DNA from: a phage
Length of the DNA: 64,000 bases
Direction: 5' to 3' (one strand)
Sequence record: PQ327946.1
Both the position numbers and the translations under genes were made by a program. The notes under the pieces are model-generated. The model was not told where the DNA came from, ran no database searches, and saw only the letters and a program-made list of their open reading frames with translations. Each line of letters begins with the position of its first letter. Positions within the stretch are counted from its first letter, which is position 1. Shown piece by piece: positions 33,731 to 41,001 of this stretch.

Positions 33731-34096
33731 TTAGATATCAAATTCGTTAAGAACTACATCAAAGATTGCTTCGAGATGTTCAGGTTTAGCTCGGTTACTC
33801 AGGATATGACGAATCCAAGTTTTAACCAGAAGTTTACGATTAACACCATTCCAGCAAGGATGAGTACCTAAATCACGCTGACGGAAATCATCATCTAATG
33901 CAATTTTAAAATTTGAACCTTCCATCGTGATTGAAACCGTGATACCATTTTCAAATCGCATATAAACGTAATTAGGAGTCATGCACTGTTCGATTTCACA
34001 AACTGTACCATTTTCGTGTTTCCATAAGCAAATAACTTCAGAAGAACCAGCAATACCGTTAGAAACATATTTACGTTCGAAGTTGGTGTAGTTCAT
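33731..34096 (-). CDS. hypothetical protein (121 aa)
   Basis: ORF preceded by early-promoter-like motif. Confidence 0.4.
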   Translation of the reverse strand: MNYTNFERKYVSNGIAGSSEVICLWKHENGTVCEIEQCMTPNYVYMRFENGITVSITMEGSNFKIALDDDFRQRDLGTHPCWNGVNRKLLVKTWIRHILSNRAKPEHLEAIFDVVLNEFDI

Positions 34097-34137
34097 TTTA
34101 TTCTCCGGATGTTTAAGTTGTTTGTTGGTACAGGTCT

Positions 34138-34166
34138 ATAATAACATAACCTGTACCAAAGTAAAC
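34138..34166 (-). promoter_or_regulatory. early promoter
   Basis: GTTTAC-N17-TATTAT; flanked by inverted repeat GGTACAGGT/ACCTGTACC. Confidence 0.5.
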
Positions 34167-34170
34167 TGTT

Positions 34171-34539
34171 TTATGCAACTTTAATCCAATTGTCTAAATT
34201 TAAAACACCTTTGGCTTTCATTTTTTCGATCAGGTTATCTGCTGTAATGCGTCCATTTTGATACCATGTAACATCTTCAGAGTAACCAGTTTCTTCGTCA
34301 ACATATGTTTCTGAACGAATTTTACCGGTAATAATAGTTTTTAATTCGTATGTGTCACCTGTGAAAAAGTTTGCTAACACAATTTTCCAAGAGAAATCAT
34401 CTGAAGGACCTTCAGGGGTCATACAACCTACGAACTCAAATTGCTCTTTGTATAACATCCACTGGAATTCTTTAATTTCGATAGCTTTATAACCGTCTTG
34501 GTCTTTACATTTGATGTATGAGTTCAGATTGATTTTCAT
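34171..34539 (-). CDS. hypothetical protein (122 aa)
   Basis: ORF preceded by early-promoter-like motif. Confidence 0.4.
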   Translation of the reverse strand: MKINLNSYIKCKDQDGYKAIEIKEFQWMLYKEQFEFVGCMTPEGPSDDFSWKIVLANFFTGDTYELKTIITGKIRSETYVDEETGYSEDVTWYQNGRITADNLIEKMKAKGVLNLDNWIKVA

Positions 34540-34580
34540 TTTATTCTCCGATTGTTTTATTGATTAGGCGGTACAAGTCT

Positions 34581-34609
34581 ATAGTAACACATCCTACAGG
34601 AGAGTAAAC
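34581..34609 (-). promoter_or_regulatory. early promoter
   Basis: GTTTAC-N17/18-TACTAT upstream of ORF 34171..34539. Confidence 0.5.
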
Positions 34610-34639
34610 ATCTTTTTTAAACTTTTTCTGCCCTAAACG

Positions 34640-34664
34640 CACAAAAGGGAGACCGAAGTCTCCC
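34640..34664 (-). terminator. terminator after the 59-aa basic ORF
   Basis: GGGAGAC-UUCG-GUCUCCC followed by UUUUG on the minus strand. Confidence 0.65.
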
Positions 34665-34669
34665 TAAAA

Positions 34670-34849
34670 TTATGCAACAACCTTTCCAAAACGAGAAGCA
34701 TCATCTCGAAGAACTGCACGTGCTCTGCGCATGATCTTCTCAACTGTTTGATTAATACGAGAGTTCGACCCACGCTTGTATCCAGCGCGTTTAGAGGTAC
34801 CATCAACTTTCTTTTCAACTGCTTTCTTTGCTTTAGCTTGTTTTGCCAT
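34670..34849 (-). CDS. small lysine-rich basic protein (59 aa), not in ORF track
   Basis: Translation MAKQAKAKKAVEKKVDGTSKRAGYKRGSNSRINQTVEKIMRRARAVLRDDASRFGKVVA; AAAGAG upstream of ATG; stop followed at once by a GGGAGAC-UUCG-GUCUCCC terminator. Confidence 0.45.
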   Translation of the reverse strand: MAKQAKAKKAVEKKVDGTSKRAGYKRGSNSRINQTVEKIMRRARAVLRDDASRFGKVVA

Positions 34850-35111
34850 TATAAATTCTCTTTAAATGAAAATGCAGGACTTATTGACATTGCCTGCTCA
34901 AGCCCTCAAGGGGAACATAGGTTTTGGATATTTAACGACAGGATAACCATAAACCCGTCATCATACCTACCACGACTTACACAGATAACACTTTTCTGAC
35001 GCATGATAGTAACATTCAAGAGGTACACCGTAAAATTGTCGGGGCGGTACTTCTAAAACATACCGATTCGCAAATCGATAATCAGACAATTCGACGGCTC
35101 CTCGATTTAAC

Positions 35112-35360
35112 TTACTTCAGGGTAATAACAAAATGACGAACTGCTTTGCGTGCTGCAGAAGCCAGAGGCTTAGCATATTTCAATTCATCTTTAGCTTCCA
35201 GTTCAGAAGCCAGAGTAGCCTGAGCAGGATTCAGATGTTTGAAATATCGCAGGATTTCCAGTGCTTCGGCTTCAACATCAATTGACGCACCGTAGTTTTC
35301 GTGACCGTTATTCCATGCGTTTCGTTGCAGTTCAAGAGCGTGTTGTAATTGTTTAATCAT
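35112..35360 (-). CDS. rIII: rIII lysis inhibition accessory protein
   Basis: 82 aa; T4 rIII-like; late promoter upstream. Confidence 0.8.
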   Translation of the reverse strand: MIKQLQHALELQRNAWNNGHENYGASIDVEAEALEILRYFKHLNPAQATLASELEAKDELKYAKPLASAARKAVRHFVITLK

Positions 35361-35476
35361 TTTAAATTCTCAATTCGAGATAATATTTAGTAGCCACGTT
35401 CGTCTGAATTTCACCTTCTTTCGACAGGTCTCTCAGTTGTAGGCTACCGCTTAGAAGAGTGTTCTCTTCATATAGT

Positions 35477-35484
35477 TATTTATA
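35477..35484 (-). promoter_or_regulatory. late promoter TATAAATA for rIII
   Basis: TATAAATA on minus strand just downstream of gene 31 stop. Confidence 0.5.
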
Positions 35485-35817
35485 TCACTTATAAAGACAC
35501 GGAATAGCTTTATAGTGGCATGTTACGAATTTCTGTTTAATTTCTTTAGGTTGTTTAAGTCCCAAAGCCACAAATGGATGTGGAACATTTCGAATTTGTC
35601 CAACTGGTAGTGGAGTCAAATCACCGACTTCAACAAAACCTTCAGGAACATCAGGACCTACAGAATGAACTACACATAGTTCAGGAACTTCACCTTGAAC
35701 ACGTTTACCAATCACAAGTCCTGATTCTGTAACTTCTTCATCACCTGCTTGAGCGGGTTCAGAAACCAGAATGACATATTCACCAACAGCACGAATTGGG
35801 AGTTGTACTTCAGACAT
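35485..35817 (-). CDS. 31: gp31 co-chaperonin (GroES-like)
   Basis: 110 aa; T4 gp31-like; MotA-box middle promoter upstream. Confidence 0.85.
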
Positions 35818-35845
35818 CTTATTTCCTTGTTGTTTGACGATAGAT

Positions 35846-35874
35846 TAATAATACCATACTATTCGTAAAGCATA
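35846..35874 (-). promoter_or_regulatory. MotA-dependent middle promoter for gene 31
   Basis: Minus strand ATGCTTTA, 12 nt, TATTAT. Confidence 0.55.
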
Positions 35875-36183
35875 TTACATAAGAAGCAAACGCTCCGCCG
35901 GAGTACCATCAACCGAAATTACTTTATCAAGGCGGAAAGAACGCCACTGGCCTAACTTGGTATCGAATGCTCGAACTGATTCACGAGGTTCATAACGAAC
36001 TTCTGTTGCTGGATTGTTATTTTCATATTTGACTTCAAGTTCATCGCGCGAAGCAAACATAGTGCGTACCTCGCCGTTAGCCTTTTCAAATACAACACAA
36101 TGAACGCCTACAGACAGAATAGTTTTAATACGTTCACGAAGAACCATAGTTTCTTGTTCAGTTAAAATCATATTATTCACCAC
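35875..36183 (-). CDS. hypothetical protein (31.1-like, 102 aa)
   Basis: ORF between cd and 31. Confidence 0.4.
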   Translation of the reverse strand: MVNNMILTEQETMVLRERIKTILSVGVHCVVFEKANGEVRTMFASRDELEVKYENNNPATEVRYEPRESVRAFDTKLGQWRSFRLDKVISVDGTPAERLLLM

Positions 36184-36754
36184 AAAAGTTTCGGATTTGT
36201 TCCCAATTCAGAGAACGAAGATTATTACGAGAGTACTGAATTACTTCAATACCAGCTTGTTTAAGAATGTCTGCCCAATTTTCAGGAGATCGGTCATATA
36301 ATTCTGCATATACAACCTTTTTAATACCTGACTGTGTAATAGCTTTAGTGCAATCAGGACATGGAGAAAGTGTCGTATACAACGTAGCACCTTCAATAGA
36401 ATTACCTTTGCGAGCAGCAAACAAAATGGCATTCAATTCTGCATGGATTTCATTATTAGCAGACCATGCACTATGAGCGGCCCGATGTTCTTTAGCCAAA
36501 ACAAAATTATCTGCCCGTCCAAATGATGTAGTGCCTTCTTTATGCCCAGCAACGATGACCGGGCTTGGTTTATTCTTCAACCAACCGTTTTCGGATGCAT
36601 GTTCACAACAGTTAACACCACCTGCAGGTGAACCATTATATCCGGTAGAAATAATGCGTCCATCTTTTTCAATGACGGCACCAACTTTCCATGAACAACA
36701 TTTTGATTCTTGAGAAATCAGATATGCAATCTGAAGGTATGTGCTAGCTTTCAT
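36173..36754 (-). CDS. cd: dCMP deaminase
   Basis: 193 aa; zinc-binding deaminase motifs HAELNAI and SPCPDC. Confidence 0.9.
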   Translation of the reverse strand: MKASTYLQIAYLISQESKCCSWKVGAVIEKDGRIISTGYNGSPAGGVNCCEHASENGWLKNKPSPVIVAGHKEGTTSFGRADNFVLAKEHRAAHSAWSANNEIHAELNAILFAARKGNSIEGATLYTTLSPCPDCTKAITQSGIKKVVYAELYDRSPENWADILKQAGIEVIQYSRNNLRSLNWEQIRNFCGE

Positions 36755-37746
36755 TATTGAACCTTATTAATATAAGTTAACAGCTCTTTAGTTTGTTCCC
36801 AACTGATGCACGCATCGGTAATGGAAACGCCATAGGACATATTATCAGAAATTTTTTGATTTCCTTCATGTAGGAATGATTCTATCATAATTCCTTTGAC
36901 CAAATCATTAGCTGCTAAATTTTTACCAATACCAATTTGATTGCTATAATGTCCAGCAGCGTTTGCATGGCTACAGTCAACCATTACATAATGATTCAGA
37001 CCTACTGCACTTGCTTTGTTAGAAGCTTCTTGAATATCAGAAGAATGATAGTTCGGGCCGTTGGTCCCGCCACGCAATACGATATGCGTATTCTGATTAC
37101 CTTCAGCTTCAACAATGCCTACAGTACCATCGACGTCCATACCCATATACCGATGAGGCCAGGCGGCACTATACATCGCGTCTGTAGCTACTTTAATAGA
37201 ACCATTGGTTGCGTTCTTGAAGCCTACGCACATCGGTAGACCTGAAGCAATTTCACGATGTGTCTGACTTTCAGTCGTACGGGCGCCAATAGCAACCCAT
37301 GAGAAAATACCAGAAAGATACTTAATCGTGAATGGGTCTAATACTTCAGTTGCTAATGGAAGTCCCATACGTAGAAGTTTACGACACAATGTTCGTGCAA
37401 CTATAAGACCGTGGTTCATATCAAAACTTCCGTCAAGATATGGATCATTTACAAGACCTTTCCAACCTACGGTAGTTCGAGGCTTTTCAAAATAAACGCG
37501 CATCACTAACAGAACATTAGGAAGACGAGTTTGAAGTTCAGCCAGACGTTTGCCGTATTCAACAGCAGCAATAGGGTCATGAATTGAACAAGGACCTACA
37601 ACAATAAGTTTGCGTGGGTCTTCACCGTTCATAATCGAATTAACTTGTTCGCGATGAGAAGCCACTTGTGATGCGTAAGCTTCCGACAAAGGAATAATCT
37701 CAGCCAGTTCTTTTGGAGAAATAAGTTTTCTGATGACAGGTAACAT
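36754..37746 (-). CDS. 3-deoxy-D-arabino-heptulosonate-7-phosphate (DAHP) synthase, class I-alpha (AroG/AroF/AroH family)
   Basis: 330 aa with family motifs GPCSIHD, KPRTTVGWKGL, GARTTESQTHRE, DCSHAN, IESFLHEGNQ, SITDACI; stop/start fused to cd. Confidence 0.85.
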   Translation of the reverse strand: MLPVIRKLISPKELAEIIPLSEAYASQVASHREQVNSIMNGEDPRKLIVVGPCSIHDPIAAVEYGKRLAELQTRLPNVLLVMRVYFEKPRTTVGWKGLVNDPYLDGSFDMNHGLIVARTLCRKLLRMGLPLATEVLDPFTIKYLSGIFSWVAIGARTTESQTHREIASGLPMCVGFKNATNGSIKVATDAMYSAAWPHRYMGMDVDGTVGIVEAEGNQNTHIVLRGGTNGPNYHSSDIQEASNKASAVGLNHYVMVDCSHANAAGHYSNQIGIGKNLAANDLVKGIMIESFLHEGNQKISDNMSYGVSITDACISWEQTKELLTYINKVQ

Positions 37747-37866
37747 AACAATCCTTAGGAGATATAAACAGATTCTGATTCAACAATACCTTTAACCGGA
37801 TTAGACAGGCTAAGTTGGTAGTTCTCAGATTTATGACCATTCACGATAGTAATGAGATAGCTCTCA

Positions 37867-38103
37867 TTATAGTGTTCCATATACTCGAGTTGCTTCAACA
37901 AGACCATCACTGCCTAATTTAAGATTAGTAATTTGGTCACCATCTTTAGGATTAACGATTATGAGAAAAGAACGTGGAGATTCTTGAATAACTCGTAATG
38001 TTGCATCTTGGAAACGTTCAGACACTTTATTGATGAGTGCTTGAGCAAATTCTTTTACTTTAATCTGAAATTCGTGTACTGTAATTGGGTTTTCACTTAG
38101 CAT
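37867..38103 (-). CDS. hypothetical protein (78 aa)
   Basis: ORF downstream of early-promoter-like motif near 38133-38161. Confidence 0.35.
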   Translation of the reverse strand: MLSENPITVHEFQIKVKEFAQALINKVSERFQDATLRVIQESPRSFLIIVNPKDGDQITNLKLGSDGLVEATRVYGTL

Positions 38104-38132
38104 TTCTATTTCCTCATTTGTTGGTAGAGTTA

Positions 38133-38161
38133 TAGTATCACAACTCCACCATGTTGTAAAC
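38133..38161 (-). promoter_or_regulatory. early promoter for the accessory island / DAHP synthase operon
   Basis: GTTTAC-N18-TACTAT upstream of ORF 37867..38103. Confidence 0.5.
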
Positions 38162-38163
38162 CA

Positions 38164-38439
38164 TTAAATTGCTTTGCATTCAATTTTTTGTGTACCGAAA
38201 TTGATATCACATTGGATAACTAAATCGCCGTCAAGATCAAATACCACTATGACGTGTGCAGACCCAGGGAGAAGAGTAATAGCAATAGAATCTACTTGGT
38301 CTGGGAGCAAAGCATTGAGTACATGAGTTAGTTGAGCATGAACTCTGAGTTCGGCTGCATTATCAAGCACTTCAAACATATTATTAGCAATAATCTGACT
38401 GAAGACTACCTTTACAATTTCAGAATAAGTTGGGAACAT
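38164..38439 (-). CDS. hypothetical protein (91 aa)
   Basis: ORF in accessory island. Confidence 0.35.
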   Translation of the reverse strand: MFPTYSEIVKVVFSQIIANNMFEVLDNAAELRVHAQLTHVLNALLPDQVDSIAITLLPGSAHVIVVFDLDGDLVIQCDINFGTQKIECKAI

Positions 38440-38446
38440 AATTACC

Positions 38447-38671
38447 TCAGTGCACAGTATTTACTTTAACTCGAACAACAAATCGCTCGGTTGGTTCACC
38501 TACAGGAACAAACTCTACATGATATTCACCTTTGTAACGAGTATTCAGATCGTTACGAATTCCTGCGAGTTTGTTGATTAATGTAGGACTCATATTAAGT
38601 CCCACTAGTTTACGAAGCATTTTGTATGCTTCATCTTCGATTTCATGATGTTTATCGTACATAGTTTTCAT
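38447..38671 (-). CDS. hypothetical protein (74 aa)
   Basis: ORF in accessory island. Confidence 0.35.
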   Translation of the reverse strand: MKTMYDKHHEIEDEAYKMLRKLVGLNMSPTLINKLAGIRNDLNTRYKGEYHVEFVPVGEPTERFVVRVKVNTVH

Positions 38672-38852
38672 TTAACCATTCAATTGCCTGGTCGACGTTA
38701 TCAAATATACTGCCGTCCAACCATTCTTCATGTTCATAGTCCAGCACATCAATACCGAACCGTCCATTTACTAAAGGCCATACGCAGAAGAAAAAGCATT
38801 TACGTTTTTCAATTTCTTCGATTGTACGAAAAATCTTTTCGATATTATTCAT
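38652..38852 (-). CDS. hypothetical protein (66 aa)
   Basis: ORF in accessory island; overlaps neighbours. Confidence 0.3.
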   Translation of the reverse strand: MNNIEKIFRTIEEIEKRKCFFFCVWPLVNGRFGIDVLDYEHEEWLDGSIFDNVDQAIEWLNENYVR

Positions 38853-39567
38853 AGGTTTTCCATTTGCGGCCTAATTGCCAATCAGGATGGCTCAATCTAG
38901 GGTCGTTTTCATCTGTTGTAGAAGATTTCTTACCTGAAATATGGATAAGCCATTTTCTGGATTTAGCTGCTTTAGAATAGTTTTCTTTTGCCTTATCTGA
39001 ACGAATCTTACCTTTATTCGCTTCGGATATTTTATTACCCCATTCTATAATAGCTTCTTCGCTCATAAAATCTTTTACATTTTTACCGTACATAGGATTA
39101 TTTTCGCCTTCAAATGAATTACCATTTTTAAGACGACTTTCTTTAGATTTAATCCCATGCCCTGGTAATTTCTTGCCTTTAATCCATGGCACGGCACCGT
39201 TTTTATATCTCTGTTTTTGTGTTTCTGAAATTTTTAATGAAGTTTCAGGGCTGGAATTAACATTAATACGGTTTTCATTGATATAATCCCAGCCTCCTTC
39301 TCCACCAGGTTTCAAATTATAATTAGTATCCAATTTTATAAATTCTTTAGTTACTAATTCGGCTTCTAAATCATATGCTTCTTGTTTAGTTTCAAATATT
39401 TTTATGATTTCTTTATTAAAAGAATCTTTACCATATTTTGATTCGGCATTTTTAAAAGCTGTACCAGAACCTAAATAAGAATCATTTTCTTTTAAGGTCT
39501 TATGAACCCCTATATAAATTTTGTTGTTAACCAAACATGTGGTTTTATACACAGTGTACTTTTCCAT
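38845..39567 (-). CDS. GIY-YIG homing endonuclease (Seg-like), start trimmed to MEKYTVYK
   Basis: GIY-YIG motif VYKTTCLVNNKIYIGVH..YLGSG; paralogous to the SegD-like ORF at 10926..11585; GAGGTGA Shine-Dalgarno before the trimmed start. Confidence 0.7.
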   Translation of the reverse strand: MEKYTVYKTTCLVNNKIYIGVHKTLKENDSYLGSGTAFKNAESKYGKDSFNKEIIKIFETKQEAYDLEAELVTKEFIKLDTNYNLKPGGEGGWDYINENRINVNSSPETSLKISETQKQRYKNGAVPWIKGKKLPGHGIKSKESRLKNGNSFEGENNPMYGKNVKDFMSEEAIIEWGNKISEANKGKIRSDKAKENYSKAAKSRKWLIHISGKKSSTTDENDPRLSHPDWQLGRKWKTYE

Positions 39568-39614
39568 TAGAATCACCTCTATAGATATTTATACTTAACT
39601 ATGGAGATTTCTAA

Positions 39615-40701
<1,087 letters not shown>

Positions 40702-40702
<1 letters not shown>

Positions 40703-41001
40703 TATTTTATTCCTAAGAAAATTTCAAGAATACGAATGTTATGCTCGCGCCGGTCTTTATTAATTTCAGCAACGTTTTTATTAATTGACGTACTTCTAAC
40801 GTTTGAAGAAATAAATTTAATCATATGACTTTTGAGTTGTTGCAAATCCAACCCTTTTTCTTTAGCAGCTTTACGAAGAGCTTTACCTGCTTCATCTAGT
40901 GCCTTTGCTGCATCTTTGTCATAATTGCCGAGTGACATTCCACGACAGATATCAATATACTCATCAGACCGTTTGATGTAATTCTCTAGTAATGTTTTCA
41001 T
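40702..41001 (-). CDS. hypothetical protein (99 aa)
   Basis: ORF; early promoter motif upstream near 41030-41059. Confidence 0.35.

Follow-up and report, generated by a model that had tools for sequence, protein, structure and literature searches.

The window analysed here is the whole 64,000-nucleotide stretch of phage DNA in sequence record PQ327946.1. It comes from a Mosigvirus, and over positions 34000-41000 its closest relative is Escherichia phage PNJ-9 (97.9% identity). On its minus strand, directly upstream of the dCMP (deoxycytidine monophosphate) deaminase gene cd, lies a gene for a DAHP synthase (3-deoxy-7-phosphoheptulonate synthase), an enzyme that condenses phosphoenolpyruvate (PEP) and erythrose 4-phosphate (E4P) into DAHP, the committed step of the shikimate pathway. 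What is new here is that the feedback site of this enzyme has been selectively rebuilt in combination with a frozen active site, a residue-level finding for which no precedent was found in the searchable literature. The gene and its immediate surroundings are as follows.

36754..37746, minus strand: coding sequence of a type I-alpha DAHP synthase (3-deoxy-7-phosphoheptulonate synthase), 330 amino acids, a member of the phage clade described below (open reading frame, profiles, structural model).
37752..37757, minus strand: Shine-Dalgarno-like TAAGGA, ending 5 nucleotides before the synthase ATG (read from the sequence).
36752..36756, minus strand: TAATG junction, a 1-base overlap of the synthase stop (36756..36754) and the cd start (36754..36752) (sequence and reading-frame coordinates).
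36173..36754, minus strand: cd, dCMP deaminase, 193 amino acids, immediately downstream of the synthase (Pfam dCMP_cyt_deam_1, E=1.5e-26; cd in the annotations of phages Mizar and T4).

The 330-residue open reading frame (ORF) that an initial annotation of this DNA had placed at 36754-37746 is indeed present, on the minus strand, with its ATG at 37746 and its TAA at 36756..36754. An in-frame stop lies upstream and position 37746 is the first start codon after it; a longer N-terminus from an upstream start is thereby ruled out, and the shortness of the encoded N-terminus is no annotation artefact. The TAA of the TAAGGA motif doubles as the stop of a small upstream ORF, and the annotation of Mizar has a ribosome-binding site at the matching place. 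The gene had also been described as fused to cd, with its start overlapping the cd stop. The geometry is the reverse: the synthase is upstream, its stop overlaps the cd start, and the junction reads ...CAA TAA TGA AAG on the minus strand (TAA stop, ATG start). A fusion is ruled out, as cd runs from 36754 in another frame, behind the TAA at 36756..36754, and no single frame covers both genes. The TAATG junction is alike in Mizar, with a 4-nucleotide overlap in an uncultured T4-like contig (L013), and such an overlap suggests translational coupling rather than fusion.

Assignment of the ORF to the type I-alpha DAHP synthases is unambiguous. The profile matches are far beyond chance (Pfam PF00793 DAHP_synth_1, E=6e-75, 252.1 bits against a cutoff of 25.5; NCBIfam TIGR00034, the aroFGH equivalog, 427.9 bits against 173.2; NF009395, 455.7 bits against 343), the phrog_5045 profile is matched over the full length (E=6.5e-182, residues 1-330 on positions 8-337 of 341), and the best solved relative is the Escherichia coli AroF structure 6agm (E=1.6e-104). 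The hallmark motifs on which the class had originally been proposed all occur in the translation (GPCSIHD, KPRTTVGWKGL, GARTTESQTHRE, DCSHAN, IESFLHEGNQ and SITDACI). The AlphaFold model, for which 51 sequences were aligned (mean predicted local distance difference test score, pLDDT, 92.1; predicted template modelling score, pTM, 0.92), has the (beta/alpha)8 barrel of the family, extended at the N-terminus and interrupted by a two-stranded beta-hairpin (strands 198-203 and 209-214), so that the regulatory hairpin scaffold is retained in the model. Foldseek aligned this model to structures of AroG and of the Neisseria meningitidis enzyme (DAH7PS) with template modelling (TM) scores of 0.93-0.95 and root-mean-square deviations (rmsd) of 1.6-1.9 A. 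The N-terminal extension is 7-9 residues shorter than in the E. coli isoenzymes: only 52 residues precede the catalytic Cys, versus 60 in AroG, 61 in AroF and 59 in AroH, which bears out the earlier remark that the protein is shorter than AroG at this end.

The catalytic residues of the window protein and of the other members of its clade (29 phage sequences in total) are identical to the bacterial set. The metal ligands C61, H268, E302 and D326 of AroG correspond to C53, H260, E289 and D311 of the window protein; the PEP-binding residues R92, K97, R165, K186 and R234 to R83, K88, R156, K177 and R225; and all of these, together with the PEP residues E143 and A164 (AroG numbering) and the E4P residues P98, R99 and T100, are kept in 29/29 sequences, the KPRT motif being K88-P89-R90-T91 in the window protein. 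The proposal that the Cys/His/Glu/Asp ligands are retained therefore holds, the catalytic site appears intact from the alignment, and the enzyme is very likely active.

The label 'AroG-type' given in the initial annotation is imprecise. By sequence the synthase is nearer to AroF (51% identity over the full length) than to AroG (48%) or AroH (45%); it scores below the cutoffs of both the AroG equivalog NF006723 (365.6 bits against 568) and the AroH model NF009396 (386.4 bits against 463), and at the position that determines selectivity for Phe or Tyr (S211 of AroG) it has Gly, as AroF does.

The regulatory site presents a different picture. In AroG numbering, 125 alignment columns that are at least 90% conserved in 98 bacterial sequences were compared with the phage clade, and only five of them have been re-fixed to another residue in the phages: Q151K, D155G, S180P, F209Y and T223A. 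The inhibitor-binding site of the Corynebacterium glutamicum enzyme, when mapped to AroG, comprises M147, Q151, D155, L179, S180, F209, S211, V212 and K214 (PMC9529685). Seven of these nine residues are among the 125 conserved columns, and four of the five re-fixed residues fall inside the site (hypergeometric P=1.8e-5). All four substitutions (Q151K, D155G, S180P and F209Y) occur in 28-29 of the 29 phage sequences, at positions that are invariant or nearly so in the 98 bacterial ones. Across AroG positions 6, 7, 147, 150, 151, 180, 209 and 211 the phage pattern is '--PIKPYG' in every homologue of at least 56% identity, with the exception of two single-residue variants (P0020, with R at 151, and P0022, with P at 150), and the corresponding pattern in every bacterial match inspected is 'xxP[P/V]Q[S/T]FG'.

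Two stretches have moreover been deleted throughout the phage clade, namely AroG 2-8 (29/29) and 290-292. The first of these contains D6 and D7, which in the AroG-Phe structure complete the pocket of the neighbouring subunit; a literature search for N-terminal AroF mutants (N8K) yielded nothing useful, and the role of the N-terminus is taken from that structure. The pocket of a feedback-inhibited enzyme, i.e. the nine site residues together with D6/D7 from the partner subunit, is thus not conserved in the phage synthase.

Published work on bacterial enzymes indicates what these positions do. Q151 and S180 contact the main chain of the inhibitor, D155 stabilises the site via a salt bridge, and feedback-resistant forms of AroG carry P150L, S180F or F209A/S; in C. 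glutamicum, Q159A and S188F, the equivalents of AroG Q151A and S180F, lose inhibition by Tyr (PMC9529685). The salt-bridge partner of D155/D156 is given in the same paper as K127 (AroG) and K128 (AroF). The alignment made here has an invariant Arg at AroG 127 (the equivalent of C. glutamicum R135) and a Lys at 128, so that the published number may be off by one or a typographical error, and the conclusion is unaffected. A further observation concerns residues 134-149 of the window protein (AroG 143-158), E-V-L-D-P-F-T-I-K-Y-L-S-G-I-F-S, which are almost invariant in the 29 phage sequences; within this segment V144, L153, I156 and F157 vary among bacteria. The constraint on the segment is tighter in phages than plain loss of a binding site would predict.

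Considered together, the residue changes indicate that the phage DAHP synthase is probably insensitive to Tyr, Phe and Trp. Loss of feedback inhibition had been suggested before from the short N-terminus alone; four replaced residues in the inhibitor site and the missing AroG 2-8 make a stronger, albeit still sequence-based, case for it.

The phage sequences form an old and well-delimited group. A protein database search returned phage and phage-like matches down to 56% identity, followed by bacterial ones, at most 54% identical and drawn from assorted phyla. A neighbour-joining tree of 127 sequences, including bacterial homologues and the 29 phage sequences, has the latter as a monophyletic group in 200/200 bootstraps, at a distance of about 0.75 substitutions per site from the nearest bacterial sequence and of 0.81, 0.87 and 0.99 from AroF, AroG and AroH, respectively. 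The ratio of nonsynonymous to synonymous substitution rates (dN/dS) is 0.12-0.21 between genera, with dS saturated. The synthase is therefore under purifying selection in an old, phage-specific clade of the Straboviridae. Recent capture from a host is ruled out by the distance of the clade from any bacterial sequence: the bacterial sequences nearest to it are 50-55% identical and are scattered over various phyla, and E. coli AroF does not come nearer than these. With tblastn, the synthase was found in 213 phage records, of which 140 are at least 95% identical, 47 are 60-80% identical and 26 are below 60%. Homologues of 35-47% identity that do not belong to the Straboviridae clade also exist, on contigs, either short or binned, of Acinetobacter phage MD-2021a and of fecal 'Bacteriophage sp.' (H82-H85); the H82-H85 homologues may be bacterial contamination or independent acquisitions.

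The synthase is embedded in a variable interval between pseT and cd. The minus-strand order is pseT, a SegD-like GIY-YIG ORF, small ORFs, cd.3, a promoter-like site, cd.2, a 51-residue ORF, the synthase, cd, a 31.1 homologue and gene 31. In addition to the features listed above, these are:

39615..40514, minus strand: pseT.
38845..39576, minus strand: SegD/SegE-like homing-endonuclease ORF with GIY-YIG and NUMOD3, 243 amino acids, between pseT and the cd.x ORFs.
38164..38439, minus strand: cd.3 homologue.
38132..38160, minus strand: early-type promoter-like site, GGTTTACA-17-TACTAT (with TG), between cd.3 and cd.2 (consensus scan).
37867..38103, minus strand: cd.2 homologue, 78 amino acids, DUF7320, the first gene past the promoter-like site (Pfam DUF7320, E=1.5e-35; phrog_1504).
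37755..37910, minus strand: small ORF directly upstream of the synthase, 51 amino acids from a GTG (phrog_15876, E=2.9e-30).
35875..36183, minus strand: 31.1 homologue (WYL_2, E=2.2e-9), directly after cd with an 11-nucleotide overlap.

The position of the synthase between pseT and cd is kept in Mosigvirus, Kanagawavirus, Marfavirus, Winklervirus, Bragavirus and the uncultured T4-like contig, the synthase of which is 57% identical and lies in the order pseT, small ORF, synthase, cd. As had been noted initially, T4 has no synthase and carries small cd.x ORFs in its place: its record shows cd.1 to cd.5 in the interval, with cd.1 (112 amino acids) next to cd. RB69, the type Mosigvirus, has neither synthase nor cd.1, and in this phage cd.2 directly precedes cd (compared stretches: RB69, L010 7743..8503; T4, L005 4119..5035). 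Since RB69 lacks it, the synthase is a presence/absence polymorphism within Mosigvirus. In Winklervirus X20 and Bragavirus phiP4-3 the synthase is followed by a cd.1 homologue and then by cd (BLASTP E=2e-10 and 1e-7). This order, together with the state in T4 and RB69, identifies the synthase as an accessory gene that has been inserted between cd.2 and cd.1, in a stretch whose gene content varies. The cd.2 gene itself is found in T4 and RB69 at the position that matches the window homologue, and the Mizar homologue of the 51-residue ORF (50 amino acids) is annotated as a hypothetical protein.

It had further been argued that the gene is embedded in a nucleotide-metabolism operon. The synthase does adjoin cd in the window; as a general argument this is weak, because a cd.1 homologue or an HNH-like ORF separates the two genes in Winklervirus, Bragavirus and Marfavirus. 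Pfam found nothing in the ORFs between synthase and cd in other genera, except in Klebsiella phage MY02 (L007 4010..4549), where a 179-residue ORF has weak HNH/NUMOD3 matches (E about 3e-3) and may be another homing endonuclease in the variable slot. The homing-endonuclease ORF at 38845..39576 is shared with PNJ-9 and WFbE185, but most close relatives cover only 88% of the 7-kb stretch, which suggests that this ORF is a mobile insertion. At the other end of the locus, T4 gene 31.2 has no counterpart in the window between cd and the 31.1 homologue. Some database records of this region are mis-annotated: among KP869101, KP869104, KP869111 and ON630910, the names given to cd are 'ribD riboflavin biosynthesis protein' and 'tRNA-specific adenosine deaminase', and those given to pseT are 'zeta toxin' and 'AAA family ATPase'. 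No tRNA genes were detected by ARAGORN in the whole 64-kb window.

Promoter-like sites are overall no commoner in the window than in shuffled sequence, and only the one that is homologous to a T4 early (Pe) promoter was used here. Its counterpart between cd.2 and cd.3 of T4, aatGGTTTACtttacggtagagttgtgaTATTAT, i.e. GGTTTACT-17-TATTAT, is nearly identical to it and is noted in the T4 record as early promoter Pe133295. We infer that the site at 38132..38160 may be active as an early promoter. A terminator scan found no minus-strand terminator-like site between this promoter-like site and cd. This, the homology to T4 Pe and the TAAGGA before the ATG make early co-transcription of the synthase with cd likely.

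The reading favoured here, with moderate confidence, is that of an early-expressed, active DAHP synthase which is deregulated with respect to Tyr, Phe and Trp and sustains carbon entry into the shikimate pathway during infection. More specifically, early transcription of the gene would begin at the T4-type promoter that precedes cd.2, with the gene as part of a unit cd.2 - small ORF - synthase - cd. Its product would condense PEP and E4P to DAHP without being shut off by Tyr, Phe or Trp, owing to a rewritten pocket (Q151K, D155G, S180P, F209Y, P150I and T223A, with the D6/D7 polar/acidic pair deleted). DAHP synthase is the flux-controlling step, and the remaining enzymes of the common pathway are largely constitutive in E. 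coli. In T4-type infections, Alc and the degradation of host DNA stop host transcription. An infected host would be unable to induce aroF, aroG or aroH because its transcription is blocked, and its existing isoenzymes would stay feedback-inhibited, so that one deregulated phage enzyme may be enough for carbon flow to chorismate, which would feed aromatic amino acids and secondarily para-aminobenzoate (pABA)/folate and quinones. The initial annotation had put particular weight on folate; this idea is a sub-case of a raised chorismate supply and is not separable from it here. Amino acid composition provides modest support, in that the AT-rich phage needs relatively more Tyr and Phe: the long ORFs of the window contain 3.97% Tyr and 4.25% Phe, versus 2.55% and 3.64% in a 50-kb sample of E. 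coli, with Trp at about 1.3% in both.

Several points weigh against this reading. T4 and RB69 do without the synthase, so that any benefit would be conditional. The pocket residues have been re-fixed rather than left to drift, a pattern that a new constraint would explain just as well as plain loss of inhibition does. Gly at S211 and Pro at 147 are the states of Tyr-type enzymes, and some residual sensitivity to Tyr is possible. The composition argument is based on small samples. Q159A and S188F in C. glutamicum AroF are unstable or poorly active (PMC9529685), and the phage changes in the pocket may thus carry a cost that other substitutions compensate. Finally, enzymology, genetics, expression, mutant phenotype and metabolomics of a phage DAHP synthase were not found in the searchable literature, where only a descriptive mention (PMC11845039) and a paper on different shikimate genes in the gut virome turned up.

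The same residues that suggest deregulation have to be weighed under other explanations. An ordinary Tyr-sensitive, AroF-like isoenzyme would simply add DAHP synthase capacity after host shutoff with its feedback kept, and the proximity to AroF (51% identity; distance 0.81 versus 0.87 and 0.99), the Tyr-type Gly at AroG 211 and Pro at 147, and the regulatory beta-hairpin kept in the model all agree with this. It is nevertheless unlikely, since Q151, S180, D155 and F209, two of which contact the main chain of the inhibitor, are all replaced in the phages, which also lack the N-terminal segment needed to complete the pocket. Near invariance of the substituted residues (28-29/29) and the almost frozen segment AroG 143-158 could instead mean that the conserved pocket has been re-purposed for a different, probably anionic effector (e.g. 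chorismate/prephenate or a nucleotide) in phage-specific regulation. The pocket has become more positive, having lost Asp155 and the N-terminal polar/acidic pair and gained Lys at 151, a conserved R127 is left without its partner, and cd, which repeatedly comes right after the synthase, itself encodes an allosteric enzyme. If this were true, the new pocket (Lys151, Gly155, Pro180, Tyr209, Ile150 and Ala223, with no N-terminal lid) would tie shikimate entry to phage metabolism. The ligand is purely conjectural, however; packing that holds the enzyme in its active state would account for the invariance equally well, and in several genera other ORFs intervene between synthase and cd, which leaves this explanation quite improbable.

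Genomic context and gene history suggest two further explanations. The enzyme could serve as a valve for carbon flux, its consumption of E4P and PEP pulling on the non-oxidative pentose-phosphate pathway or altering PEP-dependent processes in favour of nucleotide synthesis. Cyanophages do carry pentose-phosphate auxiliary genes such as talC, and the synthase is placed among nucleotide-metabolism genes and is probably co-transcribed with cd. Yet position says little in the variable cd-pseT interval, where unrelated small ORFs and homing endonucleases have accumulated, one PEP is spent per E4P, and a rewritten amino-acid inhibitor site points to a shikimate role as the selected one; such a function is very doubtful. 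That the gene is a decaying or neutral passenger captured from a host might be suspected from its accessory nature and its absence from T4 and RB69, but a dN/dS of 0.12-0.21, catalytic residues conserved in 29/29 sequences and a monophyletic group far from any bacterial sequence make this extremely improbable, and pseudogene or passenger status is effectively ruled out by conservation, dN/dS and the tree.

The gene, its annotation and a physiological hypothesis are already public, contrary to the novelty that the initial annotation had implied. In many of the 213 phage records it bears the name DAHP synthase, aroF or AroG, and PHROGs v4 places phrog_5045 in 'moron, auxiliary metabolic gene and host takeover'. 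In 2025, the homologue in Kanagawavirus KLB31 was described as an auxiliary metabolic gene, with a proposed help in aromatic amino acid synthesis (PMC11845039). The mere presence of the gene is thus not news, and it is the residue-level data that make feedback insensitivity a specific and easily tested hypothesis. The wider interest is that (i) carriage of an auxiliary metabolic gene for the step that controls aromatic biosynthesis extends to enteric T4-like phages and is not confined to marine phages, (ii) the clade, if naturally feedback-insensitive, would offer an evolved, stable substitute for the aroG(fbr)/aroF(fbr) alleles engineered for the production of aromatic compounds, and (iii) RB69 (without the gene) and JS09-like Mosigvirus (with it) would make a natural pair with which to study the conditions under which phage yield is limited by aromatic supply.

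Among known systems, the closest are the annotated phage copies themselves, i.e. phrog_5045 and the GenBank entries 'phospho-2-dehydro-3-deoxyheptonate aldolase' of Mosigvirus JS09, HX01, ATK47 and Mizar, of Kanagawavirus KLB31 and of further phages; these have the same locus and 98-99% identical proteins, nothing of substance sets them apart, and the window gene is one of them. T4 shares the genomic slot between cd and pseT and the early promoter upstream of cd.2, but it has kept cd.1 and has no synthase, whereas the window phage has lost cd.1. With the Tyr-sensitive AroF of E. coli (PDB 6AGM/6AGL) the phage enzyme shares the metal, PEP and E4P residues, Gly at the selectivity position and Pro at 148. 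It differs from AroF in lacking the N-terminal segment (AroG 2-8, which aligns with N7/N8 of AroF), in the substitutions Q152K, S181P, D156G, F210Y and P151I (AroF numbering), in a clade-wide 3-residue deletion at AroG 290-292 (5 residues in this phage) and in a shorter C-terminus. The Phe-sensitive AroG of E. coli (PDB 1KFL, 1GG1, 8E0x) has the same fold (TM 0.94-0.95, rmsd about 1.8 A), but identity to it is 48% and the phage protein falls below the cutoff of the AroG-specific model. The feedback-resistant AroG alleles (P150L, S180F, F209A/S and Q151 variants) resemble the phage enzyme in that the latter has natural substitutions at those very positions (PMC9529685); the phage residues I, P, Y and K nevertheless differ from the laboratory substitutions, and several of them are combined in a single protein.

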